Below, one piece after another: positions 3,450 to 51,058 of a stretch of 64,000 nucleotides of DNA. Under the pieces are notes generated by a model. That model saw only the letters and a program-made list of their open reading frames with translations. It was not told the origin of the DNA and searched no databases. Source of the stretch: Cyanidioschyzon merolae (lineage: Eukaryota); assembly GCA_000091205.1 (NCBI GenBank), contig AP006485.2; one strand, written 5' to 3'. The first letter of the stretch is position 1, and every line of letters begins with the position of its first letter. Position numbers and translations under genes: made by a program.

Positions 3450-4154
3450 GAACCCCGGTTAGACTTTTCGAGTGTATACCATAGAAAAATGGATCACTGT
3501 TGTGAGGTCATTGTAGTTGACGCGTGAACGCGTTCGTGCAACGCTCGGTGCGACTCCACCAGTATCTGCGTCCGTCTATGTGTGTTCGTGTGTATCAGGG
3601 CATATGTTTTTCAACAAGTTCTGCGCACTGCTTTACGACGCACATCAACGCCTGCGAAAAGCGTACACCATACCGTCGATACCGGGACAACGCGCTCAAC
3701 CGCTGCGTCCGTCACTGACACTAGACGTTGAGCCGCGCTCTCAGCTCTCCAGGCATTCATCTGCCGTATTCATGTTGCTGAGACTCCAAGAACTGTAGAC
3801 CTAGCATGACAGTAAATGTTCACGTGCAGAGAGATGAGAAACTGCAGAGAAATACGAACCTTTCATATGTAGATATTAGGGATTGTGTAGCCTGCACAGC
3901 ATATCAAGCTTGTACTGCTCATCTCTACACATCCCATACAAAGCAAAACGAGACCCGGCTCCAGTCTTATATGCCAAATACCTCCTTTCCCGCACCTGCA
4001 ATACCTTGTCAGTTCCATGCGAGTCTCCCATTCAAGAACGTCAAGACGAGAGCCTTGTTGCTACGAAGGTGCCGCGAACACTGCGGCGTCGACCGCATCC
4101 AGAACAATCAGGTTTTCCGTTTAGTTGTTGCCCGAGCGACTGGATGTTTTGGAC
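3450..4154. repeat. 705-bp dispersed repeat, copy 1 (about 98-99% identical to 34454..35157), abutting the 5' end of the EngA-like gene.
   Basis: Direct comparison of the two blocks shows only a handful of substitutions. Six-frame ORFs 3517..3798 / 34521..34802 and 3806.. / 34810.. are near-identical in translation. Confidence 0.9.
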
Positions 4155-9075: not shown

Positions 9076-11526
9076 CGTCTCGTACATGGCGCCGTCTTTC
9101 CCCGCATCATACTTGTAGAGCTCTTAGTGGAGACGAATATTGCGCTGTGCATGCGAATGCACGAATCCTCGGACAGTGAATCGCTCTCGGTACATCGCGT
9201 TCGTGCCTGATGATGCCTTGCATTCTGCGAAGGGCGTTCCAAGCGCAACGTTCACGATGCCGCGGCGTTTCACCAGCTGCACTGGAGGATGCTCTCGTGC
9301 AGCACTTGCTCGCACCTGCTTAACGACTAGAGACGCGTAAGCGCGAAGAACATATCGGGGGCGTCACGTTTTCCTCTGGAGCATGGAGATGGATTTCCTC
9401 CTTTTCGAATTCGGGTCAATACAACGTGTGCATGCACTGGAACCCATTGGATGATTGGATGTTGAAGGCACAGCATCCAGGAATGGAACGATCCCCAAGA
9501 TGCTCATCGTCATCTCTGAATCGAATTCGAAGCGGATGTACTCAGGGTTTCAGGGGCACGTACGGCTCGTGACGGCTGCGGTAACTTGGGCAACCCAAAA
9601 TGGTTTGGATAGTGACGTCCTCGTCATACGTCCTCGATAGAGTGCACGCTCGGAAGCGTCGGATGCATCTCGATAGCACTGGGGTTCGATGAAGCAAACC
9701 TCAGCTGATCCTTTCTGAGACTCGCCGTCCTGGATCCGCTGCGTTTCTTGTACGAAGTATCAGACTGAGACCCGGGCGTTTTGATCTCCAGAATATCGAT
9801 TCTGCAGCGTTGCAATGGCACATCAACTTTACCTCGATGCTGGTGCATCCGTTTGCGCTGCTGACATCCGCGACGTCCGACTCTGACGATTGCCAAGGCC
9901 AGCGTGCGGAGATACGATCGCTGTCGACCTGGCGGATGCTTAGGGAATGCATCTGATGTATGGATATTTTGGAGCAGCCTTGATCGCTTGGATCACGGCA
10001 ATAGACTCTGAAATATTGAATCGTGGAGCACTAGTATCGTCTACGCTTTTCGAAGGGAAATCGTTCGCGGTGTGCATAGAGAATCCGTTCCAGCCCTGCT
10101 GGATGGCTGAAACACCCCATGCGAGCGCCTCGCTCCTGGCGAGGATCCCATGTCCCGTTCCATGGGAACTGATGGTTTTGCATCCGTATTATGCCGTGCT
10201 TCAGCGAAATAGCCACACTGAGTATGAAACGATTCCTTCGAAAGTTCACTTGATTCAAAGACGACGTACGCACGGGAAGCTCGAGACATTTTTCCCGACG
10301 CTGATAGGGGCATTCGAGTCTCGCTTGAGAGAGCGCTTGGGCGTATGGTTGCTGGTTGAGCTTCACCAAACCAAGTGTCTCAGATTCGATGACCTAATCA
10401 TGTGATGTTCGATCAGCGCACCGTACTTGACCTTGTGTATACGACTCTGTTTCACACTGTTCTTCTCGATTGGTTTCGTCGTCCAGCTATGCGTATGATA
10501 CGTACCTGCCGTCCTGAGTGCATTGATGGGAATCGTGCAGAATCGATTCCTGCTTGCGTTGTCCGCGCTCGTCGACGAGGCAAGACCGCAGCCCTGACGC
10601 GCCATGAAACGCTCAGCATCGTGGGGTACTCGCGAACGACGAGACTGGTCAGGTGTTTGTTCTTGAAAATCCTTGAACAAGTTGGCGAATGCAGGCATCC
10701 CGTCTTTATACAAACGAAACCGTCGGTGATCCCAGCGCGGTCTCGAGTACTCGTAATCGAGATTGTTTGCTCGATCCATTAGGACGTTTGTGTACTCTCT
10801 ACATGAAGCGTAGAAAGCATCCTCTTCAGTGGATTGGGTACTCCGAGTGCAGAGAAGCGCGCGGACGCCACCATTCTAAACGTTTGCATGCATCCTGGCG
10901 TCCAGCATGCCCGACTCTCGATCATACCGATGCCTAGAAAACGTGGGTACCTCCATCCGCTTTCCATTAAGGCCGTCGGCTCCGCCCTCTTAATTTAGAA
11001 GCGCACTGACGGCGGTGATGTGTTTGAATACGGAAACCACGCACACTAGATCGTCTAGCTCTTCACCTATCTTGAGCGATCGACCGTGAGCTTCGTTACT
11101 CGACTCGCGCCAGGTTTCCGTGGAGTGCTTCCACACGGATGTTCACTCGGTCGCTATCGACGCTGTGAATTTCTTTCGTTTTCATCCTTACAGACGAGAG
11201 ACGTTGGGCGAGCTCCGTCGATTCTCTACTCCGCGACGTTGGAGTGAAGTAGGACTGCTAGTAGAGACAAGTCGAAGCGTTCTGAGAAGGCTATCCAGCA
11301 CAATACCCATGTGCCTACGGCGACATCGTGAGCTTTCAGCTCAGTTTTGTTTCGCCCCTGATGCGATGTATAGCAGGAGATCGAAATCTCGATGCAATGC
11401 GCTGTATAGATCGTCGACGAATTGCCTGTAGGATACGTCTTGTCCTGGACAGTGCGAGGTGGACTGCAATCCTCCTTCACTTCAGTCATAATGAAGTACT
11501 CTGATGGTTGCGGAACATCAAAAGGA

Positions 11527-12700
11527 ACAAGTAGATGTGTTCCGTGCCAAAAACAGGTATATTCAAAGAGTGGTTGCGGTCAACAGTAGAGAATGACCGG
11601 TTGATCACCCTAGGGAAAGCAAAACCGTCAAATGTAGTCGCCACGGACGTCCCTGTTCCTCAACAGCATGTTCGTGTGGTCGTGAAGACACCGGGATACA
11701 GTCGCGAAAAAGTCCTAGATTATGCATGGCCATCTTGCACCGAAATCGCAACGACAGCCTTCCTGGAGCGTCGCTATAGGTATGAAGCACAGTGACTTTG
11801 ATTTGTTTTTTTTTCTGTGGGTGAGACTTCCTTTCGAAGATATGGTCGGAGCGTATGCCGGCATTCGCGGAACAGGGCGCCCATTGTATGTAAATTCGAT
11901 TTAGATGAGAACGAGGATATCACGATCAGTTCGAGTTGCAGTGGATTCACTCTGCGGCCTCAGATTCGCTCGAGGAGAAAGCTCGTACAACGACACGAAC
12001 AGCTTTGTCGAATTCTTGAAGACTTTTCCGGACGTTCGATGACGTCCTTCTATGTTACAACCTGGCGTTTGACCATTCTTCTTGCGTTCACGCTTTTGCC
12101 GATTCAAACGGGAATAGAGCAGCTTTTCATTCCACTGTACGCTCCGTAATCCAGGCCCAGTGAAAGAGCGTTCTCCATCTTGATACGGTATGATCGCTTC
12201 ATTGGGCGAATCGCTGGAGTGTTCAGCACGCGGTGACACACCAGGCCATATGCCGTTGTTCTTCCGCGAGTCCATCCACCGCAGAGAGCGTCCTCACCTG
12301 GGTGCAGAGACAGGTGCATTCATTTTCAAAAAATATAAGGGATGAACTGAGATGTACACGTCCGGAGGCCGATATAGAGGGAAGGCAGCGGACCGCTTCG
12401 GCGATCGAAAATCACGGAGAGCCAACAGAGCACCAAATGGTACAGAAGGCGCGAGTTCCTGGAATCCTTGCATTGGCGAATCCAACCAGCGGCAAGAAAT
12501 GCAAAGAGCTTTCCATCCGAGACATGAACGCTACTTTCAATATTAGGAGATCTGCGACGCTGAAGACGATACCCGAGGTGCTTACGCAATGTAATTTTGC
12601 AGGGCAGCATCTCAGGCTCGAAGTGTACAAGGAGACGCTGAAGCTGATAGCAGGCGGCCGGATATAAATACACTGGGAGGCGTCTGCGGGCGGAGATTAA
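11527..12700 (+). mobile_element. Internally deleted, decayed copy of a TnpB/Fanzor-like transposon: N-terminal fragment plus RuvC-III end plus conserved 3' tail.
   Basis: ORF 11535..11795 is homologous to ORF 48240..48608 and to the end of the 45089..44415 ORF (FLERRYRYEAQ / FLERRDRYEAQ / FLDRELERKAE). ORF 12233..12667 carries a degenerate RuvC-III (ELSIRDMNATFNIRR; compare NRDFNAAINIRR at 43030). The 3' non-coding block 12553..12700 is conserved with the other two copies. Confidence 0.6.
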
Positions 12701-15104
12701 TTTACCAAATAATCGAAAAATTTTTTGTTTTCTTTACATGCACGTCCATGGGCATTTATCTAGTATACAGGACGCAAATCGAATAATCGTTTGGAGAGGC
12801 TAGCGCGCTCGCACACGAGCAGGGAATCCGCTTTAGCAGTGGCGTGCTCTGTTCAGCACAATACGTCGCTGAAAAAGGTGCAAGGCAGGCAGGCATCGTA
12901 TTCCAACTATCCTCCTGGAAACGCGTCCGCCAGTGCGAGGCTCAGAGCAACGACATGAGCCTGGGCGATCCGGAGCGACGCTCGCACGCGTTGCTAACCC
13001 GCTTCCGAACTCGCCACCAAGCGGTTTCTTTTCTGCTGCTAGGAGCTCATGAATTGGCTGCATTGACTCGCGAAGAATCCCATCCGTCACTCGTATTTTT
13101 TTTCTGAGCCAGAACAGTGAGGCTTTTTTTTTGGCGTATAACGTCCCTGAGGGTACCTCTCGTGAAGCGCTCGAGATTAACGTGTGTATGGTTTCTGATT
13201 TTGGTTTGAAGTTTCCTTAACGTATGCGCTGTAGAGCCCAGGTCGCCGAGATGCCACTGCGACTCGTCACAGGATTCTAACACATGCGTGTGCAAATGAC
13301 AGGTGCAACGATACGGAAGTATTGCATCTTCTGTACCGTGTATCCGTTGTGTGGTTGCATATGGGTTTCGTCGACAAATTCCGGAGCAATGTGGACAGCT
13401 GGCTGCCCTGTCGCCAGCATTCCTGCTTAAACTTGCTTGACGAGGTGCGTCATAGAGAGAGAGAGAGGCGAAACCAGGATCCCTCTAATAAGAAGCTACG
13501 TGATCCACCACGGTATTCTGTACGTTTCGGTACCGCGGATGCGAGCGACTCTGCTATTGAACCGTGATCGCAGTGAAAACGTTTCACAACAGAAATGACG
13601 ACTTCGACTGGATTGCACCGGACAGAACAGAACGGCACGAAGAGAAGCTCCGCGCTAGTCACAGCTGCGTTCTCCTCGACGGTTTTTGAGTGGTGGAAAA
13701 CGGCGGTGTCTAAACACAGGACATGTTTGTTTGGAAATGAGGAGCCACGAAGAGTGTTTCGACGGAGGTTAGGGTGCTTAACGCACTCGTCGCTTTGGCG
13801 GCGTTCAGGCGACCACGCAACGGACTCGTCGTCTGGGCAGGTACTGTTGCGATATTTGTTTGTCTCGTCTTTCCGAACAGCATTTTTGCCCTCTATGAGT
13901 TCCTATACGCAGGTCTGTTATTTGTCCCGAAACAAGTCTCACCGTTTGAGACTACGACCCGTTCAAACTGTAACAGTGTTCGCATTTCAATACAATATAG
14001 AGAGTAAGTGGGTCTGCGCGCGATAGTCTCACATTGAAGCATACCGGTTTCTTTGTCCATCGGTGTCCGGTTATCACCTTTCGTATCAGCGGGGCGGACA
14101 ATTCAGATCCTATGGTTCCTTTGGTAGGATTTCTCAGAGGTCGCTTGTAGTGAAATGAATAGACAAGAGGAAACAGTCCCGTAGAAAGAGTTCAATGAAC
14201 TCTGTTTCGGATGCACGATGAGAAGGATATGGACGACGAGAAATATGGTCGATCCGCGTGATGAAAGCAGACTTACGGACATCTACAAGTAGGGACGTTT
14301 TTTACACGCTCATAGTGACAGTGTAACATGTTTCCACCACCTTTCTCCAATCTGCAGGATACATTCCTGCTGTCGAACAACTAAGAGAAAAACAATCATA
14401 AACAAAAGGGCATGCAAATATATGTGCTCCAAAAATCGCTGCTCCTATAATAGGGCGTCTCGTGTGGACGCCAGCAAGTGCCTTCTCTCGATCGCTGTTC
14501 TTGAGCAACAGCGTATCGATGTAGCGAACTAGATTCTCCCAGATGCACAGCCTCTGGTGATGACCAGGAAGTAGACCTCGGGCATTAGCCCAGGATGCAG
14601 GACCCGACCAACCCCAGTGCAGCGTACCCGGATCAAGTCGGCGCTCGATCAATGCTCCAGTGCCCGGTACACCAGCTCGTGATCGCGCTTGAAACTTTGG
14701 AACGCAGATTCCATCCTGGGATCCGCGGAATGATTTTACCCGATCTGGTGTCCATGGGTGATACTAGCTACATCCAGGTACGTGCACGAACAATCGCCGC
14801 GACTCCAGATGCAGATATCGAAAGGCAAATCCTTCGTTATAGCAGACGCACCCTTGCAAGCACATGTACGAGTATATCTATATGCGCAGGCGCGCTCATT
14901 CGTCCGAGCATAAACATGCACGCCTGAATATACGCACGTACGTCCATGTATACATCCATAGACTTTCAAAGGAGGCAGAGGGCATGAACAGTGGTCTTTT
15001 TGTGAAATAACATCTCTGCATACCTGCAAGGCAGGCGGTAGTGATCCCCCACCCCGCCCCCGCCCCCCAACCCCGAGAAACATTAACATGCCCTGCCGCA
15101 GCGC

Positions 15105-34453: not shown

Positions 34454-35157
34454 GAACCCCGGTTAGACTTTTCGAGTGTATACCATAGAAAAATGGATCA
34501 CTGTTGTGAGGTCATTGTAGTTGACTCGTGAACGCGTTCGTGCAACGCTCGGTGCGACTCCACCAGTATCTGCGTCCGTCTATGTGTGTTCGTGTGTATC
34601 AGGGCATATGTTTTTCAACAAGTTCTGCGCATTGCTTTGCGACGCACATCAACGCCTGCGAAAAGCGTACACCATACCGTCGATACCGGGACTACGCGCT
34701 CAACCGCTGCGTCCGTCACTGCCACTAGACGTTGAGCCGCGCTCTCAGCTCTCCAGGCATTCATCTGCCGTATTCATGTTGCTGAGACTCCAAGAACTGT
34801 AGACCTAGCATGACAGTAAATGTTCACGTGCAGAGAGATGAGAAACTGCAGAGAAATACGAACCTTTCATATGTAGATATTAGGGATTGTGTAGCCTGCA
34901 CAGCATATCAAGCTTGTACTGCTCATCTCTACACATCCCATACAAAGCAAAACGAGACCCGGCTCCAGTCTTATATGCCAAATACCTCCTTTCCCGCACC
35001 TGCAATACCTTGTCAGTTCCATGCGAGTCTCCCATTCAAGAACGTCAAGACGAGAGCCTTGTTGCTACGAAGGTGCCGCGAACACTGCGGCGTCGACCGC
35101 ATCCAGAACACTCAGGTTTTCCGTTTAGTTGTTGCCCGAGCGACTGGATGTTTTGGA
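34454..35157. repeat. 705-bp dispersed repeat, copy 2. It lies 8 bp after the end of 2.6-kb repeat A and abuts the 5' end of the USP25/28-like gene.
   Basis: See copy 1. Identity resumes at gaaccccggttagac and ends at ...gactggatgttttggac in both copies. Confidence 0.9.
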
Positions 35158-35169
35158 CTTTTCCCGCAG

Positions 35170-38957: not shown

Positions 38958-40598
38958 TCACAGCATGACCAATCCGTTTTCTTCACACCGCAAAACACTC
39001 GTCCGCCAGTTATACACATAATAGTGGAGTTCGCCATCACCCGGTGCAAATTTGAGCTGATCGAAAACCTCTCGATTTTCCATCAAGTGCAGTGCATTAA
39101 AAACATCGAATCCTGCATTTTTCGCGAGAATAAGGGCATCTTGCATGAGGTCCTGAAACGAGCAACTCGTCGCTACGTTGTAGAAGGAATACGCTGCTCG
39201 CAGGGTGCGGTGTTTGCTACTGTGAATCACGCTCGATGGGAGTGAGTAGAAACTAATGAGGTCGGTGACGCGTTCGTTTGAGGTACCGGTGGCGCTGGTG
39301 TTTCGCTGCACGCGCACGAAACTGTAAATGACGTCATCGCGTGGCAAAAACCAGTGTTCAAACTCGGTTTCTGAGAAGCATGGATGGAATTTGGTGTGCG
39401 TTTCCAAGTACTGAGAGAGCAGTGCCCGAGCCGATGCGCAATGCCTTCGTTCCAAGGGCATCACGTCCGGGTGTAGCGGTTTCTCCGGAAGCGCATAGAG
39501 TCTTTCAGTGAGTTTCATGGTCATGCGAGGTCGTAATCTACTAAAACCGCACTCAATCAGTTTTCGGGCATCCAGCGAGCGATGCCAATAGCGACAGGTA
39601 ACCAGCGGCCTGGGAAGCAGCGTACCCGCCGTGTATACCGCTTGGTAGATGCCTTGGCGGTGCGCTCGTCGGGTGATTTCGCGGATCAGCACAGGGGCCA
39701 GTCGTTTGTGCCGAAGCCTCTTATGGATGCAGAGAAAGTTCACCTCGACGACAGCAAGAGCTTTGACATCTCGAAGTCGCATGGTTACCGGCACTGCGGC
39801 AATGAAGGCTACCAGTTTGGAGCTCGTGCTCACGCGAACGCCAACATGCCAGACACGTTTCCAACCTGGTGGTGATAGCGCCCAACGCAGAAACGCAGGC
39901 GAATAGTCGAAACGAAACTGGGCATCGTCGTCTTCGACGTAGTTTGAACGAAGCAGTTCATACAGTTCCTGGATATCGCTTTCGGCACTGATATCGAGTT
40001 CACACCAAGAGAACCCGGCAAGCAACGGGTACGGCGCCTCCGGCACTGACGCCGGGTCCAAGCGGGGACGCTCGTCAATGGGTCCATCACACGTCACACA
40101 GGTCTCGTTGTACTGAGGTACCGGTTGTGAGGACCAAAAACGATGCTGGTGTCGCTGCTGTTGAGGCGGCGCTTCGGGCGCCTGGTGCTCGAGTCTCAGC
40201 TGCTGTTCACTGAGCGCGGTTGAAGCGTCGGTGCCTGCAGCGGTGCTCCGTAGACTTAAAGCCTTCGCCAACCGCTCTGCAATGTCCGGCACATGCAGAC
40301 CGTACGCAGAAAGCGGGGTACCCGTGTCCGGTGAACCACCTGAAGAGGCGCCGTTCTGGTCAGTTTGCTCAGGCTGCGTCCCAGCAGTGCCGACCTGGCG
40401 CTCCGTGTGCGTCCCTATGCAAGGCTCTTCATCGGTAACCGCAGCTGCCTTGTCTTCACCGTTTCCAGAAGCTTCGTGATCGCTTTTCGACGCTTCCATC
40501 AAACAAGCGTTTCTGCTCTTTTTCGGTCCGCGAACGCTGCAAAGTCGCCAGTTTCGCTGCAGCTCGAGTCGCTGAACACATTCTCCTGGCTGACGCAT
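38958..40598 (-). CDS. NMT: Glycylpeptide N-tetradecanoyltransferase (N-myristoyltransferase) with N-terminal extension of about 150 aa. Possible alternative start at 40499.
   Basis: FWSSQPVP, the acyl-CoA binding region EVNFLCIHKRLRHKRLAPVLIREITRR, and the C-terminal ...YVYNW...GLVML characteristic of NMT. Confidence 0.9.
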   Translation of the reverse strand: MRQPGECVQRLELQRNWRLCSVRGPKKSRNACLMEASKSDHEASGNGEDKAAAVTDEEPCIGTHTERQVGTAGTQPEQTDQNGASSGGSPDTGTPLSAYGLHVPDIAERLAKALSLRSTAAGTDASTALSEQQLRLEHQAPEAPPQQQRHQHRFWSSQPVPQYNETCVTCDGPIDERPRLDPASVPEAPYPLLAGFSWCELDISAESDIQELYELLRSNYVEDDDAQFRFDYSPAFLRWALSPPGWKRVWHVGVRVSTSSKLVAFIAAVPVTMRLRDVKALAVVEVNFLCIHKRLRHKRLAPVLIREITRRAHRQGIYQAVYTAGTLLPRPLVTCRYWHRSLDARKLIECGFSRLRPRMTMKLTERLYALPEKPLHPDVMPLERRHCASARALLSQYLETHTKFHPCFSETEFEHWFLPRDDVIYSFVRVQRNTSATGTSNERVTDLISFYSLPSSVIHSSKHRTLRAAYSFYNVATSCSFQDLMQDALILAKNAGFDVFNALHLMENREVFDQLKFAPGDGELHYYVYNWRTSVLRCEENGLVML

Positions 40599-41963: not shown

Positions 41964-42701
41964 TTAAATCAGTTTCTTTGCCCTGAAGAAAGCGTTGAGG
42001 TAGCGTGCCTGCCAGATACCTGCTCCGATCATAACCAAGCAAGAGATGATGCTGTACCAGAGCACGCGCCGCGACACCGACTCGTTGATTGAGCGCATAG
42101 CCTCTTCACGAGCCCGCATATGCTCCAGTTCTTCCAGAATGGACTTCACTTCATCTTCCATGCGCCGCAGGGCGATTTCCAGGTTATCAAGGTGCTCTAC
42201 CTTGGCTACTGTTGAGTAGTCCTTCGCCGCGGCTCCCGTACTGACGTGGAGCGTAATTTTGCGTTTCGTCTCGGGCCCGTCACCGTTTTTTCCCGAAAGG
42301 CAAAACTGGTAGTTGTAGGTAGGCCATACGTCTCCGTAGTTTTCGTCGAACTCTTGGTGCTCTTTGTCCGCCTCTCCAACGTTACCGTGCGGGTGCTGAC
42401 CGCGCTGCGGTCCCGCTGGACTCTCGAACGTGAACTTTCCCTGATCGATGTTGTCTTTTTGAAAGATTACCTTACCGTCAGGTCCAGTGACCACCAGCTC
42501 GACATCAAGTTTACCTGGGCCGGCAGTGACGAGGTACTCGCCTAGAACGCGGGTCCCCGCGGTCACGTCCTCGCTGAAACACTTCTTTTGGCCACTTTTC
42601 AGGAAAAACTGAAGCGCGCCCGTCACCGGAACCCGAGCTAATACGCCCAGCACGAGCAAACACCAAACCAGAGTACACAGTCTACGCGAAACCGACGACA
42701 T
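41964..42701 (-). CDS. p24/emp24 (TMED) cargo receptor: GOLD domain, coiled coil, one TM, short tail. Start called at the signal peptide M (42701); the track ORF extends to 42929.
   Basis: Signal peptide MSSVSRRLCTLVWCLLVLGVLA. GOLD-domain pattern (FFLKSGQKKCFSEDV...YLVTAGP...VELVVTGPDGKVIF). Coiled coil LEIALRRMEDEVKSILEELEHMRAREE. TM plus C-terminal FFRAKKLI. Confidence 0.82.
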   Translation of the reverse strand: MSSVSRRLCTLVWCLLVLGVLARVPVTGALQFFLKSGQKKCFSEDVTAGTRVLGEYLVTAGPGKLDVELVVTGPDGKVIFQKDNIDQGKFTFESPAGPQRGQHPHGNVGEADKEHQEFDENYGDVWPTYNYQFCLSGKNGDGPETKRKITLHVSTGAAAKDYSTVAKVEHLDNLEIALRRMEDEVKSILEELEHMRAREEAMRSINESVSRRVLWYSIISCLVMIGAGIWQARYLNAFFRAKKLI

Positions 42702-42884
42702 TCTTGCCACGAGCGCTCGGATCCAGGCCTTGAGTAACGTCTGAGATGCGAGCACTGCCCGTTGTGTGATTGTTTGCGTGCGAGGGTGCGTTTGTGTCGG
42801 TATACCACCGGTAGAGCGGGCGCACAGTCGAACGATGCCACCGGTGTACAGAAGCGGCGAGAAACCCGCTTTCGAGGAAACGTC

Positions 42885-45089
42885 TCCAAGTGATGTGCAG
42901 ACGCCCCCTCGTCTTTCTCGGCGGGCCATCTTCTACTGATTCCAAGTTTTTCTCATATAGTTCGACTTGGGAAGGTTGTCCAACAACGTTCCCTCCTGTG
43001 GACTCTGGAGGTCTTTTCTCCATTACCAATCATCTCCGTATATTGATTGCGGCGTTAAAGTCTCGGTTAAAAACCTCCATCCGTTTCTTGCGATTGGAAG
43101 TTGTACTCACTAATGCAAATAGCCCCTGCACTTTTGCCCTCCTTTCCATTTGCTCCTCCGTCAGCGGTCCGTACTTTGCTATATCCTCATGGCTCCTCTG
43201 GCACTTTTCCATCTCCACCCTCTGAAGTGTACACCCCAGCTCGTGGTGTGTATAGGACGTTCGGAACTCATCTATCGGTATTATAACAAAACGCCGTGCA
43301 CACTCCTTGCACGTTCTTGTCGTTGGAGCTGGTGTACACCCTTTTTGGGTCTTCCATCGCCCTGCTCCGTATGCCACTACCAGCCTCTGATTTTCATCCT
43401 CCTTCAGGGCACTCAACTGATTGAAAAAATTCGCGAGCGCCCGCTGCTTTCCACAATACAAATTCATTCGCAAACGAGCCCACCGGGGCTTTGCATACTC
43501 CTCGCACAGCGTATCTCAATGAGGAACGCGAACTTCCATGAATTTTCGAAAAGCTGCAAAGTCCGCTCCTCGGCTCGTCACCTCGCTCAAAGCTTCCAGG
43601 TGATCCTTCATTCCTACATTCCATGCAGCAATTTCCTTCCTTGCATTCATTGTTCCCGGTTCTCGATAGTATATTGCTCTCGAGAACCTCAAAAAAGACG
43701 CATGTCTTTCTGACGTAAGTTACCATCAGCACTATCTTCCGTACGCTTCGGTGCTGCGATGGTTATGATATTCGTATTCCCAGGGTCCGCGCCGACGACA
43801 AAGTCGTTATCCTGCACTTTCTGCGTGGCAAAATCCTCCTCCTTCTCATCTTCATGCATCGCCACGCCAACGACAAAGTCGTTAGCTTGCACCTCCTGCG
43901 TCGCAGCACCCGCCTCCTTCTCATCTTCATCGTTCGTCACGCCAAAGACAAGGTCGTTATCATGCACCTCCTGCGTCGCAGCATCCTCCTCTTTGTTTTC
44001 TTCATGCTTCGCCGCGTGAACGACAAGATCGTTATCCTCTACCTCCTGCATCGCTGGATCCGACTCCTTCTCATCTTCATGCTTCGTAACGGGCGAAGCC
44101 GAGGGCGGAACTGGACGATTTTTCTTCAAGCGCCGATATTGTACACACGTGGCTACTCCATCGGTTTCGATCATCCCAGTGAATACCTTTTGTTTGCTCA
44201 CTTCAGATGTTTGAAATCGAAGATATTCTTCCAGTACGTCTCACGATTTTCGCCGGAGAACTCCTCCTTGTTAGCATTGAACACCGGACTGATCTCCCTC
44301 ATGATGCCGTAAAGGATTCTGGAGTCCATACTCACAAAATGTGACTTGATGTTGCACATTGGAACCACGTTGAAGCGCTTCCCCACTAGGGCAGCCTTCC
44401 ATCTCTCCCACGCTTCATTTTTCCCCACTCAGCTTCACCTCTGCCTTGCGTTCGAGTTCACGGTCCAAAAACACGAAATACCGCAGGACGAGGCGATAGT
44501 ATCTTTCCTTATCTTCTCTCAACTCTGATATCTTGTCTGTTGGATTCGCTAACTCCAAGACTGCGCGGTGCTCTTGTATAGCCGCACGGATTACAGAAGC
44601 TTCATTTGTGCCCCTGCGTGACGCCTTCTCTCCGACGAATTCGATCTCATCTTCATGCTTGCGATCGTTCGTGATGCCGTTGATAATCGCCCATTTTCCG
44701 TTACGAGAGATGCCCGGGTACAGTGCAAACACGGCGCGTATCATGAAATGTTCGAGGTTCATTCTGAAATGGTTCTTCAGATTCGTCAGGTACTTCATCG
44801 CCCCATATGTGTAGATATCCGCGTCACCACTGTATCGGGTACCCTCGAGGAGGAATTCCGCGAAGTTTTCGTGGAGGACTTTCACCCGCTTATTTTCCCT
44901 CCGCGCTTCCTCTATGCCAAGCATCAAGTGACGAAAAAATGTGTTGTCGAAAAACTCGTCCGGAAGCTCGACCGTTTCCATGTTCGTCACGTAGCGATAC
45001 ATCTCCCTCACCAAATGCGTCGGTCCTGAAGAAGCCTTTATCATACTCATGGAGTACGACTCGAGACGGTTTTTGATGGCGTCCCGCAA
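42885..45089 (-). mobile_element. Near-full-length TnpB/Fanzor-like (OMEGA-type RNA-guided nuclease) transposon copy. The coding region is broken into 5 consecutive overlapping reading frames (pseudogene, or possibly short introns).
   Basis: Minus-strand ORFs 45089..44415, 44428..44198, 44201..43689, 43732..43394 and 43473..43030 are contiguous and overlap by a few to 80 bp. ORF-c ends with a RuvC-I-like VVGADPGNTNIITIAAP. The last ORF has the TnpB hallmark ...FVIIPIDEFRTSYTHHELGC...(degenerate Zn finger)...NRDFNAAINIRR* (RuvC-III DxNAAxNI). The 3' non-coding tail 42885..43027 is conserved with the two truncated copies. Confidence 0.65.
43791..44090. repeat. 75-bp tandem repeat x4 (encodes 25-aa acidic units) inside the Fanzor-like ORF, just N-terminal to the RuvC-I motif.
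   Basis: Units start at 43791, 43866, 43941 and 44016 (gcc(g/a)a(c/a)gacaa(a/g)gtcgtta...cttcatg...). Translated on minus strand as ..HEDEKEEDFATQKVQDNDFVVG.. x4. Confidence 0.9.
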
Positions 45090-45642
45090 CTTTTCCTTCT
45101 ACGGATCCTTGATATATTTAAGAACACAGGCTTTCACCACTATCTCGTTGTACAGTTGCCTTTCTTGCCGCCTTCGACGTAGAACCTCGCCCCCTTTTGA
45201 TTCCTCATCACTTCCTGTTCCTTTTCGCTCCGCCATGTTTATCCTTCTTTTCCGACGGCCGGCGATATCGGCCCTCCGGGATCCTCCACTTCCATTTCCA
45301 TGACTTTCCTTTTTTTATTTTTTTTGAAAACGAACGCTCTTTGAACGCTTCTGTTATATACTTCGAAAAAACACTTGAATATACTCAATTGAGGGTCGGA
45401 ATAGGATGGAACAAAAAACCTATACTTTGCTACGACCTCAACGCGAATACAACTTTTACAGTAGAATAGCACGCCAGTGATCAGGATCACTGTTCCCCTC
45501 AGGAGCGACCAGAGCGTCGTGTCTCGTGCCCGCCGGATCTGCCAGGTGCGCGTGCACGCGCAGCGGCTGACATGCGCCCCGCCGCCGATCAGGAGATTGC
45601 TTCTGGATATGTCTATCTCAAAGCGTGATAACCTGTTGCTGA

Positions 45643-47529
45643 ATGAACGCTCACCACAATGACTGGACTCCCGATAAAGTATTGGATACAGTGAGGGAAT
45701 ATGTAGACGCTGGAGCACTGTCGGAGTGTGCGGCACTGGACTTGCTGGAGCGTTTGCCGTTACCGCTGCTGGGCTGGACACTGGAGGAGTACGCGGTGCG
45801 GGCGTCGCTCGAGGCTTCAGACAGCGACGCGGTACCTTCTGACAACATATTTGATTCCATGCAGGTATTAACGAAAACAATGGAGAAACTGGTCAAGCTC
45901 TCTGCAACAAGTGCCCGAGTGCGTCACGTCGTACCTATAGAGCAGGTGCTCCAGCTCATCCACCTCGGTCTGAGCAGCCGGTACCCGCTGGTACGCACAG
46001 CTGCGCTCCGTCTGCTTTGTCTCCTTCTTGAACGGAATGACTTGCCTGAAGCGTTTTGTCAGCAAGTTGCAGACACTATTATCGAACGTTTTGAAAGTAC
46101 GAACGAGCTTCGTCCGGAGATAGAGGCCGCACAAGCGCCAGGTCCAGAAGTGAACGCTCCCAGCACAACTGCACAGCACGCCAGCGATATCCTGTCACTG
46201 GTGCTGCTGAGCTTCCGTGATGATCCATCCACCGAAGCTGCGGGAATTTGTGAAAAAATCCTGAAGAACCTGGTACAGCTGAAGCCGTTCCGCGGCGCAG
46301 TTGTGCTCTTCAGCGAAGCACGAGGCGCGCAAATCCTCGTACAGGAGATGCTCTCGGGTGCAGCGGGTGCGGTTGCGCATATCCGAGCCTTGAACTTGCT
46401 GCTTGAGATCTGCGACTACTCGTCTGTTGCAGAGATTGCCGCACGTCGGCTGTTGCCAACCGTGCTTGTAGCCAAAATCGCAGCTCCTGTTCGTTTGGAT
46501 GAGGACTTGCTACTCCGCTTGAACTTGCTGGATGTGCTTGGGGCTTTTATGCAACGCAGTGCAATAGCAGCCGAGTTGCTCGACCAAATTTCGGTATTCG
46601 ATGTGCTGCTACGCCAACACCTTGCCTATTTGTTGGCGCCAGACGAGCCTGCCTCGAGCGACTTGGCGGAACGCTGGTTTATTTGGATGTGTGGGATTCT
46701 GAGGTTCGTGCGCACCAGTGCCGGCTCCAGCCGTTGCGCCTTCCACGCTTGGATGAACGCCAGTCTCGTAGAGATTCTTGGGCGCTTTCTCTTGGTTCAC
46801 GTGGTAGATGGCGAGACTGAGACAGCACACTGGTCCGTACAACTTGATCAAGTTCGTCGGACGACGCTGCTGGTGCATCTGATCTCCGCGGTAGGCGCTC
46901 TGGGGCTCTGTGAACGCGGGATGGACGTGCTGCTTGCGGACGTTGACACCTTGAAACTAACGCTTCGTTTCATTCAAACGGCGAGCGTGTGCGATATTCG
47001 AGTGGCCTCCTTGCGCGCTTTGAGTGTGTTCCTGGCAGGTCTCGACGAGCCGCTTTCATCAGCAGCCGTCTCAGGGTACGGAGCCGCCGAATCCGACCTC
47101 GAATTTCGGCAGCAAAGGGTGCTGCATCTGTTCACTGATGCGATCAGGGATGCGGATCCCGTCAAGGCGTTCACGAATGCACTGCCCATTGTCCTGGACT
47201 GTGCACGGCATCCTTCGGAAGAAGAGCGGCTGGCTGCTGCGGCGGTATTCGCTGCGCTAAGTCTGTCGAGAATCGGAGTTGTCGCGTTGGCTAGTATGGC
47301 GGGCTTTGTGGAATGGCTCTGCGACCCGACGGACGCTTCTCTCGAGGTCCTGGAAGCTAAGATGCGCGTTGCACGACGCCTAGTTGAGCTGCACGCCAGT
47401 GACGGAGAAGTCGCATTCGGTGCGCTGAAATGGTCACGTATTGTCGCCGTGGTCTCGAATGGAAGCGATCCTCGAGCTGTGCGTCAGCGGCGCGTGCCTG
47501 CTGTAAACATTGCCACTCTGAATCGTTAG
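45643..47529 (+). CDS. Hypothetical ARM/HEAT-repeat-like protein (628 aa). Function unknown.
   Basis: Long uninterrupted ORF with Leu/Ala-rich helical-repeat character throughout. No diagnostic motif recognised. Confidence 0.45.
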   Translation: MNAHHNDWTPDKVLDTVREYVDAGALSECAALDLLERLPLPLLGWTLEEYAVRASLEASDSDAVPSDNIFDSMQVLTKTMEKLVKLSATSARVRHVVPIEQVLQLIHLGLSSRYPLVRTAALRLLCLLLERNDLPEAFCQQVADTIIERFESTNELRPEIEAAQAPGPEVNAPSTTAQHASDILSLVLLSFRDDPSTEAAGICEKILKNLVQLKPFRGAVVLFSEARGAQILVQEMLSGAAGAVAHIRALNLLLEICDYSSVAEIAARRLLPTVLVAKIAAPVRLDEDLLLRLNLLDVLGAFMQRSAIAAELLDQISVFDVLLRQHLAYLLAPDEPASSDLAERWFIWMCGILRFVRTSAGSSRCAFHAWMNASLVEILGRFLLVHVVDGETETAHWSVQLDQVRRTTLLVHLISAVGALGLCERGMDVLLADVDTLKLTLRFIQTASVCDIRVASLRALSVFLAGLDEPLSSAAVSGYGAAESDLEFRQQRVLHLFTDAIRDADPVKAFTNALPIVLDCARHPSEEERLAAAAVFAALSLSRIGVVALASMAGFVEWLCDPTDASLEVLEAKMRVARRLVELHASDGEVAFGALKWSRIVAVVSNGSDPRAVRQRRVPAVNIATLNR

Positions 47530-48229
47530 ACCAAGGGCAGCATCGGCGATCGACACAGCGCTCTGCACGTTGAGCGCGACTCGTGTGCTTGCCAATGACC
47601 GGGCTTGGAGTCGCAGGGGAACCTGCTCGTCAGCTATCAGGTGCCGTGGACCTGGTCGGGATCGGTAGCATCTGCAGTCGTGCGGTCCAAGCGTCAGACA
47701 GCACCGTGCTGACAACAAACGCCTACTTGGCGCGCTTGTACGACAGGACGCTGTGCAGAAGCATGTTTGGTGTCGTTTTCGACGATCTGAGGATCGATGC
47801 AAGGTGCGTCTTCGAGGAAGGCATGCTCGGACGGCAAAACTTGGGTACCAAGGGCACTTCGATGCCTGTTCGCATCGATCGCTGGTATGCTGCGTATCTG
47901 GTAGAGGCGAATACCGTACATAGAGGTATGCGCTGGTGCGTCCGTTCACCGTCTCGATCCGCTGCTGGTACGCGGCTGCGTTAGAATTTCGAGTACCCGA
48001 CGCTGTTACGACGTAAAGGCGCTTCGGTTGATAGTCTTTCAACTCAATTTTGTTTCATCGCGGCTACGGTATATAGGAGGAGGACGAAATCACTAGGTAA
48101 TGTTCTGTATAGATTGTGGAGGAATTGCATACGGCATATGTATTCTTCACTGAACAATGCAATGATGATTGCATTGCACCTCGATGTCAATCATACCACT
48201 ATACGCAGATGCTGAACGAGCACTGAAAG

Positions 48230-49395
48230 AAACAAGTATATGCGCTCCGGGCCGAAACCTGATATTCTCAAAGCCTGCCTGCAATCAGTGATAGAAAACG
48301 ACCAGTTGATCAATTTACGGGAAGCAAATGCGTCCATAGTAGCCACCACGGGCGTCTCTGTTTCGCAACAGCTTATTCGCGTGATCCTGAAAACACCGGG
48401 ATCCAATCGCAATAAAGTGCTAGTTCATTCACAGCCAGCTTCTACCGAAATCGCAGGCACGGTGTTCCTGGAACGTCGCGATCGGTATGAAGCACAGGAA
48501 CATCAGTTTGTTTTCTCACTCGATGAGACTTGCTTCAAACGAGACAATCGCAGCGTAGATGAATACTTGCTGAGCGGGAGCCCGTTGCTCGTACGCTCGA
48601 AATCGTAGAGAACGTCGACATCATCATCTGTTCTAGCTGCGGTGGATTCATTTGGCTGCCTCAGTTCCGCTGAAGAGAACACTCATGCAGCAGCGCCCTC
48701 TTTTTGTAGAGTCATTGAAGACTTGTCCCAGACGTCTGGTGAAGTCCTTCTATTGGACATAGTGGTATTTAGCCGTTCTGCTTCAGTTCGAGCATTTTTA
48801 GATTCTTTCGAGGGGTAGAGCTGGTTTCATTCCTTCTTCTCAACCATGGTTCATCCCCATAGAAGAAGAGTTTTGCGTCCTGAATCGTCACGATCGCTCC
48901 ACCGGGCGAATTGATGAAGCGTTCAGCACATGGTGACCAACCGGGGCACATTTGGTCTTTATTCCGCATGTGCTGCTCGATGCGGGAAGGTCGTCATCTC
49001 AGGCTATAAACAAATGCGTTCATTTTCGAAAAATCTAAGGGATGAGCTGGAATATACACCCTAGGATGTTGAGTTGGAGCGAGGCCAGTGGAGCGTTTCG
49101 TCGACAGATCAGCACGAAGAGCTAACAGAGCACCCAATGGCACAGCGTACACGGCTTCGTGGTCTCCTTGTATCGATTAGTTCAACCAGTGGCAACAAAC
49201 ACATGGAGTTCACGAACCGAGACTTTAACGCTGCGATCAGTACAAGACGGTGTGCGATGCTAAAGACGATACCCGATTGGCAGACGCGATCTAACTTTGT
49301 GGAGCAGCCTCTTAGGCATAAAATAAACAACGAGAAAATGAAACCGATCGCAGACAGCCGGTCTAAACAGACTGGAAGGCGTCTTCGAGTGGATT
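48230..49395 (+). mobile_element. Second internally deleted, decayed copy of the TnpB/Fanzor-like transposon.
   Basis: ORF 48240..48608 is homologous to ORF 11535..11795 (about 55% aa). ORF 49074..49442 has MEFTNRDFNAAISTRR (RuvC-III). The 3' tail 49252..49395 is conserved with the 12553..12700 and 42885..43027 tails. Confidence 0.6.
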
Positions 49396-49795
49396 TTCAT
49401 CTACGCTCCATGGTTTTGAGGCATTCCTTTTTGTCTCACTGACGATGAGCCTAATCGAGAAGGAAATCAAGGCCAGTATCTGATATCGAAACTTGTTGCT
49501 GCCCAACAGATAGATTTAGGGTTCGTTCTTCTGTATCAGAAAACCTAGAGTGCGGCATCCGCGTATTCTGTATCCAGATATACTCACCCGCGAATAGCTG
49601 CCGCACTGCCGTGGCATTCGGGCGATATCTGTCTTTCAGACAACATTCTCGCTTCCACGCAAAGCCCCTGACGCACAGGCCGCGGGCAGCACAACCAGTA
49701 CCTGCAGAGAACATCGTGCAACGCTCCCCAGCGTTTGAAATCTGTCGAGGTTGCCGTGCTCTCGCTCCGATGAAAGCTCCAAACGCATGCAAAGC

Positions 49796-51058
49796 TCACA
49801 CGGGCCATTGGTGTTCTATCTCCGTCCGATGGGCTGTCTCAAAATCCAAGTGCACAAAGCAACGCTCCACGTAAGGCAAACACTCAATGCGGGCCTGGAG
49901 CGACTCCCCAATGTCATGAGAAACAACCAGCGGCATCTGCGGATCCAGCACAATATCGATTTCGGCAAAGCATGCTGGACCCACGTGGTACAGACAAACA
50001 CGATCGATCGCTCGAATCCGCGAATCATGCCAAAGCGCTGCAAAAGTTACCACAGAGTGCAGCCTACAGGATGCCGAGCGCGACAAAAACTGATCCAGAT
50101 GTCGTGAGGTCAGCCGCCACCAGTTGCGTAGGATAAAAGCAGAGATGAGCATGCCACCGAGAGGGTCTGCGGGCGGCCACCACTGCGCCAGAGCAGCAGC
50201 GCTCAGGGCACCCATATTCGACAGACAGTCATTCCAGTGGTCCATAGCCAACGCTGCAACCGAGTCCTGCACAGATACACGACAGTAGAGGAAGAGCGCT
50301 GCCTTGCTCAACAGGGCCACACCGATCCAGATGAGCACTGGGCGGGTAAATGGGTGCACTGTTGATGACCGTTCCGAGCCGCTCACGTACAGCACCAGCG
50401 ACTCTATGGACTGCGTCAGTACATTCAAGGTCAGTGCGGTCATGAGAACGGCCATGAGGATCACACCCACCGACTCGAGCCGCGTCCTACCGACCGGGTA
50501 TCGATAGCGAGTGGTGCGATCGTGTCGGTGGTGGCGCACATACCACGTCAGACCGATAATGACACCAGAGAAAAAGTCGAGGACGGCATCCACGGTATTG
50601 GCCAACAGCGCGAGACTTTGCATGGACACGTAGGCATACGCCTGCCCAAGGAGAAGCAGCAGGTTCGCTCCGTTGGATGCAAGGATCGCGCGTCGAGCGT
50701 AGTCTTCGGTGTCGACTCCTTGGTGCTGCGACTTGTTCGGAGGCATCACCGCGGTCCCTGGACGCTCCTCGGTCGACGTGCAGCTCGTGTAGGAGACGCT
50801 GGGCGTTGGCTCCGCAGTCAGCAGGTGCTTCGCTTCCTCAGGCGCTTCTGTCGAGAGGTTTGGCGTTGATGCCGCTGGCCAGCAGCTCGCATCCGCCGGG
50901 GCTGTCGGCAAAGACACGTACTGATCGAGCAGTTCATTCTGACGCTCATAAAACTTCCGGAGCGCAGCGTTCTCCAGATGCGTTGCATCCGCTCGAAAAA
51001 AGGCGCGTCTCCACTGTAGCGCCAACTGGTGACCCTGCACTGCGCTCGGTACGTCCAT
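49796..51058 (-). CDS. Cation diffusion facilitator (CDF/MTP, Mn/Zn-type) metal efflux transporter.
   Basis: TM bundle with the CDF signature region ...NTVDAVLDFFSGVIIGLTWYVRHHRHDRTTRYRYPVGRTRLESVGVILMAVLMTALTL... (compare plant MTP8-11: DSLLDLLSGFILWFT...YPIGKKRMQPVGIIVFA), then a C-terminal cytosolic domain; 420 aa. Confidence 0.8.
   Translation of the reverse strand: MDVPSAVQGHQLALQWRRAFFRADATHLENAALRKFYERQNELLDQYVSLPTAPADASCWPAASTPNLSTEAPEEAKHLLTAEPTPSVSYTSCTSTEERPGTAVMPPNKSQHQGVDTEDYARRAILASNGANLLLLLGQAYAYVSMQSLALLANTVDAVLDFFSGVIIGLTWYVRHHRHDRTTRYRYPVGRTRLESVGVILMAVLMTALTLNVLTQSIESLVLYVSGSERSSTVHPFTRPVLIWIGVALLSKAALFLYCRVSVQDSVAALAMDHWNDCLSNMGALSAAALAQWWPPADPLGGMLISAFILRNWWRLTSRHLDQFLSRSASCRLHSVVTFAALWHDSRIRAIDRVCLYHVGPACFAEIDIVLDPQMPLVVSHDIGESLQARIECLPYVERCFVHLDFETAHRTEIEHQWPV

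Follow-up and report, generated by a model that had tools for sequence, protein, structure and literature searches.

Cyanidioschyzon merolae 10D carries on chromosome 3, within the 64,000-nucleotide stretch analyzed here (the window), two short elements that resemble one another and end in a fragment of a Fanzor nuclease. Proteins of the window match genes of 10D chromosome 3 exactly. A sequence-only reading had interpreted both elements as Fanzor genes that share the same internal deletion, as would be expected if a deleted form had spread. We asked what the two elements are made of, where their shared structure came from, and what they imply for the repeats of this alga.

Composition of the two short copies

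The element at the center of this analysis (copy 2) and its counterpart (copy 1) are delimited in Table 1. An nhmmer family profile built from 20 copies matched copy 2 at 48037-49440, with an envelope extending to 49445. The two copies are colinear and about 67–69% identical at the DNA level (69.1% across the 1178 alignment columns joining 11521-12685 to 48226-49384, E 2e-30), in agreement with the earlier description of a second copy organized like the first. Both contain FLERRxRYEAQ and a RuvC-III motif at equal spacing. The roughly 55% amino acid identity previously given for the open reading frames at 48240..48608 and 11535..11795 was recovered (48/86 residues, 55.8%, including FLERR(D/Y)RYEAQ), as was the equal spacing: FLERR and the RD motif lie 750 bp apart in copy 2 and 755 bp apart in copy 1, close to the ~725 bp first estimated. 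The interval first assigned to copy 2 captured ~83% of the element and missed ~200 bp of coding sequence at the 5′ side and ~50 bp at the 3′ side. The weak likeness proposed between FSLDETCFKRDN and the open reading frame at 44428..44198 was at the level of chance, with a score of 24 compared to 19.5 ± 4.0 for shuffled sequences, 15% of which matched it. Another Fanzor relic is found 310 bp from copy 1, on the opposite strand.

Table 1 Features of the two short copies and of the full-length Fanzor1 element in the window
Feature	Positions	Strand	Basis or comparison
Copy 2, whole element, ~1410 bp (5′ terminus GTCTTTCAAC..., 3′ terminus ...CTCACTGAC)	48034..49443	+	family profile and paralogue ends
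Copy 2, 5′ leader, ~35 bp, terminus to start-codon position	48034..48068	+	
Copy 2, IS630/Tc1-mariner-type DDE_3 transposase pseudogene, ~322 codons	48069..49038	+	Pfam DDE_3, intact relatives
Copy 2, helix-turn-helix region IALHLDVNHTTIRR	48168-48209	+	
Copy 2, helix-turn-helix region VSVSQQLIRVILK	48354-48392	+	
Copy 2, first catalytic-Asp motif, SLDETCF	48516..48536	+	aligns with S(L/I)DE(T/V)SF of intact DDE_3 relatives
Copy 2, second catalytic-Asp motif, LLLDIVVF (consensus LLLDNVAFHHS)	48747..48770	+	
Copy 2, catalytic-Glu motif, FIPIEEEF (consensus PPYAPWFNPIEGVF)	48850..48873	+	
Copy 2, deletion junction, ...TAA GGGAT / GAGCTGG	49039..49044	+	alignments, Fanzor profile start
Copy 2, Fanzor1 3′ tail, ~last 125 codons, up to element 3′ terminus	49044..49443	+	
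Copy 1, organized as copy 2	11331..12742	+	family profile match 11334-12742
Copy 1, transposase ATG	11366		
Copy 1, transposase stop TAA	12336-38		
Copy 1, junction	12343/12344		
Copy 1, RuvC-III relic, IRDMNATFN	12515-12541		
Full-length Fanzor1 element, CMe-1A type, frameshifted	42826..45553	−	reference for tails

Judged by its sequence, the first 1 kb of copy 2 is a transposase gene of the IS630/Tc1-mariner (DDE_3) type, complete though decayed, and includes no Fanzor N-terminus. Its start codon has decayed to GTA (48069), where copy 1 still reads ATG; in-frame stops are found at 48213-15, 48606-08, and 48934-36, a +1 frameshift lies near 48816, and the reading frame ends with TAA at 49036-38. 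Searched as separate open reading frames, copies 1 and 2 gave no Pfam match at E ≤ 10. The DDE_3 match (PF13358) in copy 2 came only from the frame-joined translation (E 7.9e-6, profile positions 4-138 of 146), and its 26.2 bits fall just below the curated cut-off of 28.6 bits. The family consensus, frame-joined by hand, reached 78 bits against this same cut-off and 120.9 bits with the NCBIfam IS630 model NF033545 (cut-off 100), along with helix-turn-helix matches under their cut-offs (HTH_Tnp_Tc3_2, E 8e-4; HTH_33, E 1e-3). A HMMER search of 1.84 billion representatives identified 225 transposase relatives at E < 1e-3; a word-indexed search of proteins, using the translation of copy 2, returned one fragment (P0044). 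Intact relatives are 293–301 aa long, contain DDE_3 at E 1e-23 to 1e-28 together with HTH_23 / HTH_Tnp_Tc3_2, and align with the short-family transposase along its whole length. In alignments, the two helix-turn-helix regions coincide with HTH_23 and HTH_Tnp_Tc3_2 of the intact relatives P0103, P0106, and P0107, and 34 residues separate the second Asp from the Glu (DD34E), as counted on the frame-joined translation and on P0103.

The N-terminal fragment initially attributed to Fanzor is hence a DDE_3 transposase pseudogene: its first 275 residues did not resemble Fanzor1 (the 752-aa protein P0045 gave a best E of 0.71), nor did the 5′ region resemble the Fanzor pieces of the window itself. The motif FSLDETCF, likewise taken as Fanzor, is the first catalytic-Asp motif of the transposase. 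Copy 1 is more decayed than copy 2, and this motif now reads SVGETSF there. Today, neither of the two copies could produce a transposase or a nuclease.

The Fanzor tail and the deletion junction

The Fanzor-derived part of the element is limited to its last 400 bp, from codon ~665, right after RuvC-II, to the element end, and corresponds to the final sixth of a Fanzor gene. In copy 2, this tail is interrupted by one internal stop (49062-64) and includes MEFTNRDFNAAISTRR, as previously reported, with the RuvC-III motif NRDFNAAIS at 49215-49241. Its Fanzor origin is indicated by a BLASTP alignment to P0045 residues 671-751 (44% identity, E 4e-17), a match to residues 665-752 at E 1e-35, and tblastn matches at E 4e-11 to 5e-15 to the RuvC-III end of the full-length Fanzor1 located in the window. 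This full-length element is 81.8% identical over 2739 bp to the metagenome locus that encodes P0045 (L002); its codon ELGCT... is at 43242, and the family profile matches its tail at 43244-42893. Absent from copies 1 and 2 are the RuvC-I Asp motif (D.G..N; GADPGNTN in the local Fanzor1), the RuvC-II Glu motif (DEFRTS), and the zinc-finger/TNB region, the junction being just downstream of DEFRTSYTHH, and the Fanzor1 N-terminal region (P0045 residues 1 to ~480) has no counterpart in the short element.

On its left side, the junction consists of the first bases past the transposase stop, and on its right side of Fanzor codon E665 (P0045 numbering), with homology starting at ELGCT.... Consistently, three full-length Fanzor elements start matching the short-family profile at one position, 1014. 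The proposal of a shared internal deletion thus stands insofar as one junction occurs in both copies, but what was removed is not the middle of a Fanzor ORF. An in-frame transposase–Fanzor fusion, suggested by the open reading frames P0044, P0222, and P0236, was also considered and rejected, because the A-rich run that holds the junction varies in length and because copies 1 and 2, as well as a related locus (L011), have the transposase stop.

A dispersed family and its two-gene relatives

Hot-spring metagenomes contain the short form, with one junction and one set of termini, at about 20 distinct loci. At least 17 of ~22 distinct metagenome loci pass from transposase residue 320-322 to Fanzor residue 664-668 within 5–45 bp, a census based on contigs of close relatives (96–98% identical at the copy 2 locus) and not on the 10D genome. 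Element termini were set where 15–20 paralogous copies stop resembling one another, and are exact to within a few bp; upstream of (G)TCTTTCAAC, the flanks of the 15 aligned copies are unrelated. Since family copies share the junction and both termini and have unrelated flanks, a deleted derivative did spread, as the sequence-only reading had anticipated. Differing breakpoints, which would have pointed to independent decay, were looked for and not found: the junctions are identical.

Pairwise identity among 20 copies averages 66.7% (63–71%, SD 1.8), and each copy is 77–83% identical to the consensus. Their phylogeny is star-like, and diversity is evenly distributed across the three codon positions (0.30, 0.29, and 0.30), i.e., no codon periodicity indicative of purifying selection on the transposase was detected among copies. 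This combination suggests one old burst followed by neutral decay. All short-family copies seen are pseudogenes, and copies 1 and 2 are ordinary members of the star-like family rather than a special pair. No terminal inverted repeats were detected joining the ends of either copy or in the end consensuses of 15–20 copies, in a search whose sensitivity is limited by ~20% decay per copy, and no consistent TA target-site duplication was observed, the 5′-adjacent dinucleotides being variable (TA, TC, TG, GA, AG, and others). Both features are hallmarks of IS630/Tc1-mariner transposition, so movement by the encoded transposase is inferred.

Relatives of the family retain both genes. In L003, a gap of 43 bp separates the transposase P0107 from a downstream gene on its strand, whose 639-aa product can be aligned with P0045 from one end to the other (E 7e-73) and carries the motifs DPG, DEFRTS, and NRD; P0247 has the same layout. 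With the transposase directly upstream of a full Fanzor1 in intact relatives, the short form corresponds to a two-gene transposon minus ~2 kb. From Cyanidioschyzon itself, no intact two-gene parent was recovered: three loci from Cyanidioschyzon metagenomes (L018, L019, and L022) retain transposase residues 1-208 followed by a full Fanzor1 between the 5′ and 3′ ends of the family, and L018 lacks the C-terminal third of the transposase. Another locus, L011, consists of a complete transposase, a spacer, and the N-terminal half of Fanzor. It is doubtful as the ancestral parent, because over 3.25 kb, ending exactly at the junction, it shares 97% identity with a short copy (L010), and synteny between the two is lost on both sides.

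Tc1/mariner elements encoding both a transposase and Fanzor1 are already known (PGv-1 and PUl-1; Bao & Jurka 2013, PMC3627910). As in these, the presumed parent and the intact relatives have a DDE transposase followed a few tens of bp later by a same-strand Fanzor1, and one-gene-loss derivatives have been described from that group too, such as the Fanzor-only PUl-4 (PMC3627910). The short family, in contrast, kept the transposase and lost the nuclease except for its last ~125 codons, and shows none of the terminal inverted repeats and TA duplications of the published elements. Its gene has the typical organization of IS630/Tc1-mariner (ITm) DD34E transposases (HTH-HTH-DDE, ~300–320 aa, D..D(34)E, consensus above both cut-offs), but differs in being directly followed by a Fanzor fragment and in being represented by pseudogenes only. 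Bacterial IS200/IS605 and IS607 elements likewise split into one-gene forms that spread, including TnpB-less, transposase-only derivatives, and transposition as such does not require the RNA-guided nuclease (cited in PMC3627910); unlike these, the short family is of the DDE type, neither HUH nor serine recombinase, and its host is a eukaryote.

Within C. merolae, the closest comparison is CMe-1A, an unclassified Fanzor1 repeat with ~150 copies of ~3 kb that are ~80% identical to consensus (PMC3627910), the unit comprising a Fanzor1 ORF and sharing its 5′ 635 bp with TE-N2_CMe (Bao & Jurka 2013, PMC3627910). The final ~350 bp of coding sequence in CMe-1A are homologous to the short-element tail, and the two families overlap only at profile positions 1014 to ~1365: CMe-1A has no transposase gene and has another 5′ end and another last 70 bp, whereas the short family has none of the 664 N-terminal Fanzor codons of CMe-1A. 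No 5′ end common to both was found. A short remnant of the transposase 3′ end persists in the CMe-1A upstream region (nhmmer E 0.0027), and one short copy (L001) has a CMe-1A-type last 70 bp. The two families are equally old, both being ~80% identical to consensus. The genome paper of C. merolae listed 253 copies of a 3.2-kb WSV486-like repeat, which is probably CMe-1A, and 8 class II transposase-related elements closest to bacterial transposases, which are probably IS630-type transposases (PMC1955436).

Origin and significance of the short family

Taken together, the window copies are very probably decayed members of a 1.4-kb DNA-transposon family of Cyanidioschyzon derived from a two-gene transposase–Fanzor1 parent. 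This parent would have measured ~3.5 kb and consisted of the 5′ end, the DDE_3 transposase, a short spacer, Fanzor1, and the 3′ end. A deletion of ~2 kb, which appears to have occurred once, would have taken away Fanzor codons 1 to ~664, with the whole N-terminal part and the RuvC-I Asp and RuvC-II Glu motifs, as well as most of the spacer. Spared were the two termini, the complete transposase gene, and the final ~125 Fanzor codons. Having kept its own transposase and both ends, the derivative could still move, Fanzor/TnpB being unnecessary for transposition, and its own transposase is the likely agent of its mobilization. It would then have amplified in one burst to ~20 or more loci, after which every copy decayed neutrally. 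The tail would persist for its cis-acting right end, and possibly for a guide-RNA region.

Other origins are considerably less probable. If each short copy were a Fanzor gene without its middle, with an N-terminal fragment and RuvC-III retained, this would agree with the genuine RuvC-III tail and the colinearity of copies 1 and 2, but not with residues 1-275 of copy 2, which match DDE_3/IS630 transposases over their full length and resemble neither the 752-aa Fanzor1 nor the Fanzor pieces of the window, so that this scenario is barely credible. Equally remote is an independent nesting of a transposase-only transposon in Fanzor elements, through chance juxtapositions or segmental duplicates: C. 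merolae does have segmental duplications, and the opposite-strand Fanzor relic near copy 1 might be read in this way, yet the junction is nucleotide-identical among copies only 67% identical to each other, no upstream Fanzor part exists on the same strand, and termini are common to copies whose flanks are unrelated. A slim chance is left for the same deletion recurring at a hot spot in separate two-gene copies, for which the exact end of the L010–L011 identity at the junction and the CMe-1A-type end of L001 could be invoked. Against such recurrence are the star-like phylogeny, the uniform 63–71% pairwise identity, and the single junction in at least 17 loci, and no repeat or microhomology was found beside the breakpoints. 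Locally, the L011 spacer best matches sequence that precedes the Fanzor ORF and not codon 660, and the transposase 3′ relic upstream of CMe-1A could be a crossover site. Under a single old deletion, the likeness of L010 and L011 requires a later recombination or assembly join, and the loss of synteny on both sides is as expected of recombination or a chimeric assembly.

A separate question is whether the tail was functional, as a Fanzor omega-RNA gene plus right end served in trans by Fanzor1 from hundreds of CMe-1A copies. TnpB and Fanzor systems carry their guide-RNA gene at the 3′ end of the ORF or overlapping with it. The deletion spared the last 400 bp of the Fanzor gene as far as the element end; the consensus tail folds somewhat better than shuffled sequences (z −1.9), and the short family and CMe-1A are of equal age (PMC3627910). 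However, this z-score is weak, as 3/100 shuffles are equally good, Rfam returned no match on 42600-49600, and all copies decay neutrally. The 5′ end and last 70 bp of CMe-1A also differ, and therefore the two families have no common ends. Tail retention needs no RNA function, because any deletion derivative must keep its terminus. Overall, a functional tail is unlikely. There is a small chance that the parent split into two complementary same-age one-gene families, a transposase-only family that retains the Fanzor 3′ end (right end plus guide-RNA region) and whose 400-bp tail would still give rise to a guide RNA, and the Fanzor-only CMe-1A, with Fanzor1 acting in trans for the former; if true, the transposase-only family would be a naturally occurring "guide-only" satellite of Fanzor in a eukaryotic host.

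Returning to the single-deletion origin from a two-gene parent, the element is a long-dead, ordinary relic, one of 20 or more decayed copies, rather than a Fanzor gene that was gutted. The short family reveals no new mechanism, and because every copy is dead, its value is historical and for annotation. For annotation, what appeared to be a hollowed-out Fanzor gene is corrected to a transposase gene carrying a Fanzor tail. For the history of the genome, two separately reported repeat classes of C. merolae, the "bacterial-like transposase" relics and the abundant WSV486-like/Fanzor1 repeat, whose transposon class had been left unknown, are tied together by a common IS630/Tc1-mariner plus Fanzor1 ancestor. 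A Fanzor-bearing transposon kept amplifying after the loss of its nuclease, which fits a role of Fanzor/TnpB as an accessory of transposition rather than its engine.

Two colinear copies of a short element

Copy 2 lies between CMC074C and a probable Mn transporter gene, in a gap of 2.3 kb. When the window was compared with itself, 11521-12685 aligned with 48226-49384 as one colinear match (69.1% identity, 1178 columns, E 2e-30), and a global alignment of copies 1 and 2 contained only small indels. The sequence-only reading had taken copy 2 for a second internally deleted Fanzor-like copy, and the copies, motifs and spacing that it described are real: the two ORFs are 55.8% identical (48/86 residues, against a claimed ~55%) and have FLERR(D/Y)RYEAQ in common, copy 2 carries the RuvC-III motif NRDFNAAIS at 49215-49241, and FLERR and the RD motif lie 750 bp (copy 2) and 755 bp (copy 1) apart. 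One supporting detail was noise, as the weak alignment of FSLDETCFKRDN with the 44428..44198 ORF scored 24 against 19.5 +/- 4.0 for shuffles, 15% of which equalled it, i.e., chance level.

Features of the short elements and their surroundings (window positions)
Feature	Position	Strand	Remarks
Copy 1, whole element	11331-12742	+	placed by common termini of aligned copies
Copy 1 transposase start	11366		ATG; MYSRR, cf. MYSMDRR of P0103
Copy 1 transposase stop	12336-38		TAA
N-myristoyltransferase	38958-40598	-	exact match to annotated C. merolae 10D protein, chromosome 3
Full-length Fanzor1 element	42826-45553	-	frameshifted; 81.8% identity over 2739 bp to L002
Putative transposase 3'-end relic	45269-45341	-	in full-length element; L002 3902-4067; nhmmer E 0.0027
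CMC074C	45643-47529		exact match to annotated C. merolae 10D protein, 481,791-bp chromosome 3
Copy 2, whole element	48034-49443	+	placed by common termini of aligned copies
Copy 2 transposase start	48069		decayed to GTA
Copy 2 transposase stop	49036-38		TAA
Mn transporter (probable)	49796-51058	-	exact match to annotated C. merolae 10D protein, chromosome 3

Copy 1 may be nested within an older Fanzor element: a Fanzor1 relic at 10291-11022(-), matching residues 489-734 of the metagenome Fanzor1 P0045 (32% identity, E 8e-24), is on the opposite strand at a distance of 310 bp from its 5' end, and a possible, marginal Fanzor N-terminus match (13164-13337(-), E 0.037) lies past its 3' end. Elsewhere in the window, a 705-bp repeat (3450-4154 / 34454-35158, 99% identity), together with CMC074C and CMQ418C, which are both 628 aa, fall in one 90%-identity cluster and are annotated on different chromosomes, points to recent segmental duplications in this region of chromosome 3.

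A transposase gene joined to the end of Fanzor1

Residues 1-275 of the copy 2 translation, previously interpreted as a Fanzor N-terminal fragment, showed no similarity to P0045 (752 aa, encoded by metagenome locus L002; best E 0.71) and instead match DDE_3/IS630 transposases. This region contains, in frame and preceded by helix-turn-helix segments, FSLDETCF, LLLDIVVF.RS and FIPIEEEF, which by sequence are the predicted three catalytic motifs of IS630/Tc1-mariner transposases, with 34 residues separating the second Asp from the Glu. Joined across frames (48240-48815 plus 48817-49071), the translation matched Pfam DDE_3 at E 7.9e-6 over profile positions 4-138 of 146, with a score (26.2 bits) slightly below the 28.6-bit cut-off. 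Searching 1.84 billion representative proteins exhaustively with HMMER yielded 225 relatives at E<1e-3, many of them pieces of this decayed family itself. Those intact relatives that were tested (P0103, P0106, P0107 and P0110; 293-301 aa) reached DDE_3 E-values of 1e-23 to 1e-28, some also containing HTH_23 or HTH_Tnp_Tc3_2, and aligned with copy 2 from first residue to last, which places the start of the gene ~170 bp upstream of the ATG initially chosen. A frame-joined majority consensus of 20 copies scored 78 bits against DDE_3 and 120.9 bits against the NCBIfam ‘IS630 family transposase’ model (cut-off 100). In copy 2 the gene is interrupted by three in-frame stops and one frameshift; copy 1 is worse.

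For the tail, copy 2 was 44% identical to P0045 residues 671-751 (E 4e-17), and P0044, the ORF of a related short copy, was 69% identical to residues 665-752 (E 1e-35). The match begins at ELGCT, right after the RuvC-II motif DEFRTSYTHH, and extends through RuvC-III to the C-terminus, with one stop in copy 2. Since the Fanzor ORF ends very close to the 3' terminus, a deletion derivative has to retain part of it to be viable. Rfam gave no match for a guide RNA in the tail, and the fold z-score was weak (-1.9).

Within the full-length Fanzor1 element, tandem 75-bp repeats (43787-44091(-)) lie shortly before the RuvC-I motif and code for acidic repeats of 25 residues (…ATQEV.DND.VV…), whose number differs between this copy and P0045, P0046 and P0048. 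The 3' end of the element overlaps by ~100 bp (42826-42929) the longest ORF of a p24/GOLD-like gene (41964-42929(-)); that exact ORF sequence had no match in the protein collection, and translation probably starts at a Met further downstream.

Probable parent element, spread and decay

The copy 2 junction reads ...TTTCGAAAAATC TAA GGGAT|GAGCTGG, its right side being that of the full-length element ...CACCAC|GAGCTGGGG (HH|ELG, window 43242), and in three independent full-length Fanzor elements the match to the short-family profile starts at one position, 1014. In the short element, a leader of 35 bp thus precedes a complete transposase gene, which is followed by a few bases of spacer and then by Fanzor from codon 665 to the element's end. 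Contig L003 (3413 bp) encodes intact P0107 and, after a gap of 43 bp on the same strand, a 639-aa protein with DPG, DEFRTS and NRD motifs whose alignment with P0045 runs end to end (E 7e-73); P0247 is arranged likewise, its neighbour being 660 aa long. The same pairing of transposase and Fanzor1 is known for some Tc1/mariner elements (PMC3627910). Three Cyanidioschyzon-type metagenome contigs (L018, L019 and L022) combine the family 5' end, transposase residues 1-208, a spacer, full Fanzor1 and the family 3' end. Taken together, these layouts indicate that the short form is a two-gene element minus ~2 kb.

Scanning metagenome contigs with the transposase alignment identified 66 loci, representing ~22 distinct ones, of which at least 17 pass from transposase residue 320-322 to Fanzor residue 664-668 within 5-45 bp; most others are colinear, with decay too great for tblastn to reach the junction. 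Aligned copies begin with (G)TCTTTCAAC... and end with ...CCATGGTCGTGAAACGTTTTTCGTTTTACTGAC, and their flanks are unrelated on both sides. Different breakpoints would argue against the spread of one derivative; the junction was shared and, with the shared termini and unrelated flanks, bears out the proposal that a deleted derivative propagated.

Among 20 distinct copies, pairwise identity averaged 66.7% (range 63-71%, SD 1.8) and identity to their own consensus was 77-83%, copies 1 and 2 being no closer to each other than either is to any other copy. Diversity was equal at all three codon positions (~0.30, 0.29 and 0.30), and the two patterns together are the signature of a single burst and subsequent neutral decay. 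In age, the short family matches what has been reported for CMe-1A, the C. merolae Fanzor1 repeat (~80% identity to consensus; PMC3627910).

Four metagenome loci orthologous to that of copy 2 (L004, L005, L007 and L009) were 96-98% identical to window 46500-49233 and lost all similarity past 49233-49239, inside the RuvC-III motif, and L007 is without the downstream Mn-transporter gene; ectopic recombination of two copies within a single lineage would be expected to leave such a break. Each copy of a 2.6-kb duplication (31823-34445 / 59601-62223, 99% identity) holds a weak transposase relic (32259-32509 / 60051-60286; nhmmer E 2e-4 / 8e-4) and, ~1.1 kb downstream of it, a Fanzor relic (residues 563-703), a spacing unlike that of the short or intact two-gene form, so that it may be a differently deleted relic.

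Inferred mobilisation, possible recombinants and a possible link to CMe-1A

With neither terminal inverted repeats nor a consistent TA duplication found at the element ends, mobilisation by the encoded transposase is a step that we infer. Locus L011 contains a complete transposase, the spacer and the N-terminal half of Fanzor. Over 3.25 kb, of which 2.3 kb are upstream flank, it shows 97% identity to the short copy L010, and the two diverge exactly after the transposase stop codon. Recurrent deletion could still account for such a pair, but the copies form a star phylogeny, the L010 and L011 contigs lose similarity on both outer sides, and a putative transposase 3'-end relic upstream in CMe-1A could be the crossover site for L011. 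Because of the star phylogeny, we take L011 to have arisen by later recombination or by a join made in assembly.

CMe-1A-type elements differ from the short family at the 5' end and over the last 70 bp, and this absence of shared termini speaks against cross-mobilisation. One short copy, L001, has a CMe-1A-type 3' end. Ahead of their Fanzor ORF, CMe-1A-type elements carry a seeming transposase 3'-end and spacer relic (TTCnTTTnCAAAAA..TAAAAA..). L011 4761-4930 aligned locally with the window full-length element at a score of 29 (shuffle maximum 31), and with L002 as a colinear ~170-bp alignment with a raw score of 41. This weakly suggests that CMe-1A may also descend from a two-gene element.

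The C. merolae genome paper described eight ‘class II’ elements that most resemble bacterial transposases; a 3.2-kb repeat containing a WSV486-like ORF was counted apart from them, at 253 copies (PMC1955436). Bao and Jurka identified this repeat as Fanzor1 (CMe-1A), leaving its transposon class unknown (PMC3627910). A common two-gene ancestor would link these two repeat classes; a limited text search of papers did not find this stated. Overall, the sequence-only reading was half right, its shared deletion and propagated derivative standing and its Fanzor N-terminal fragment not: the short element is a dead IS630/Tc1-mariner transposon in which only the last sixth of the Fanzor1 passenger is left. 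The mechanism is not new, and the element is of use in annotation and in tracing Fanzor history.
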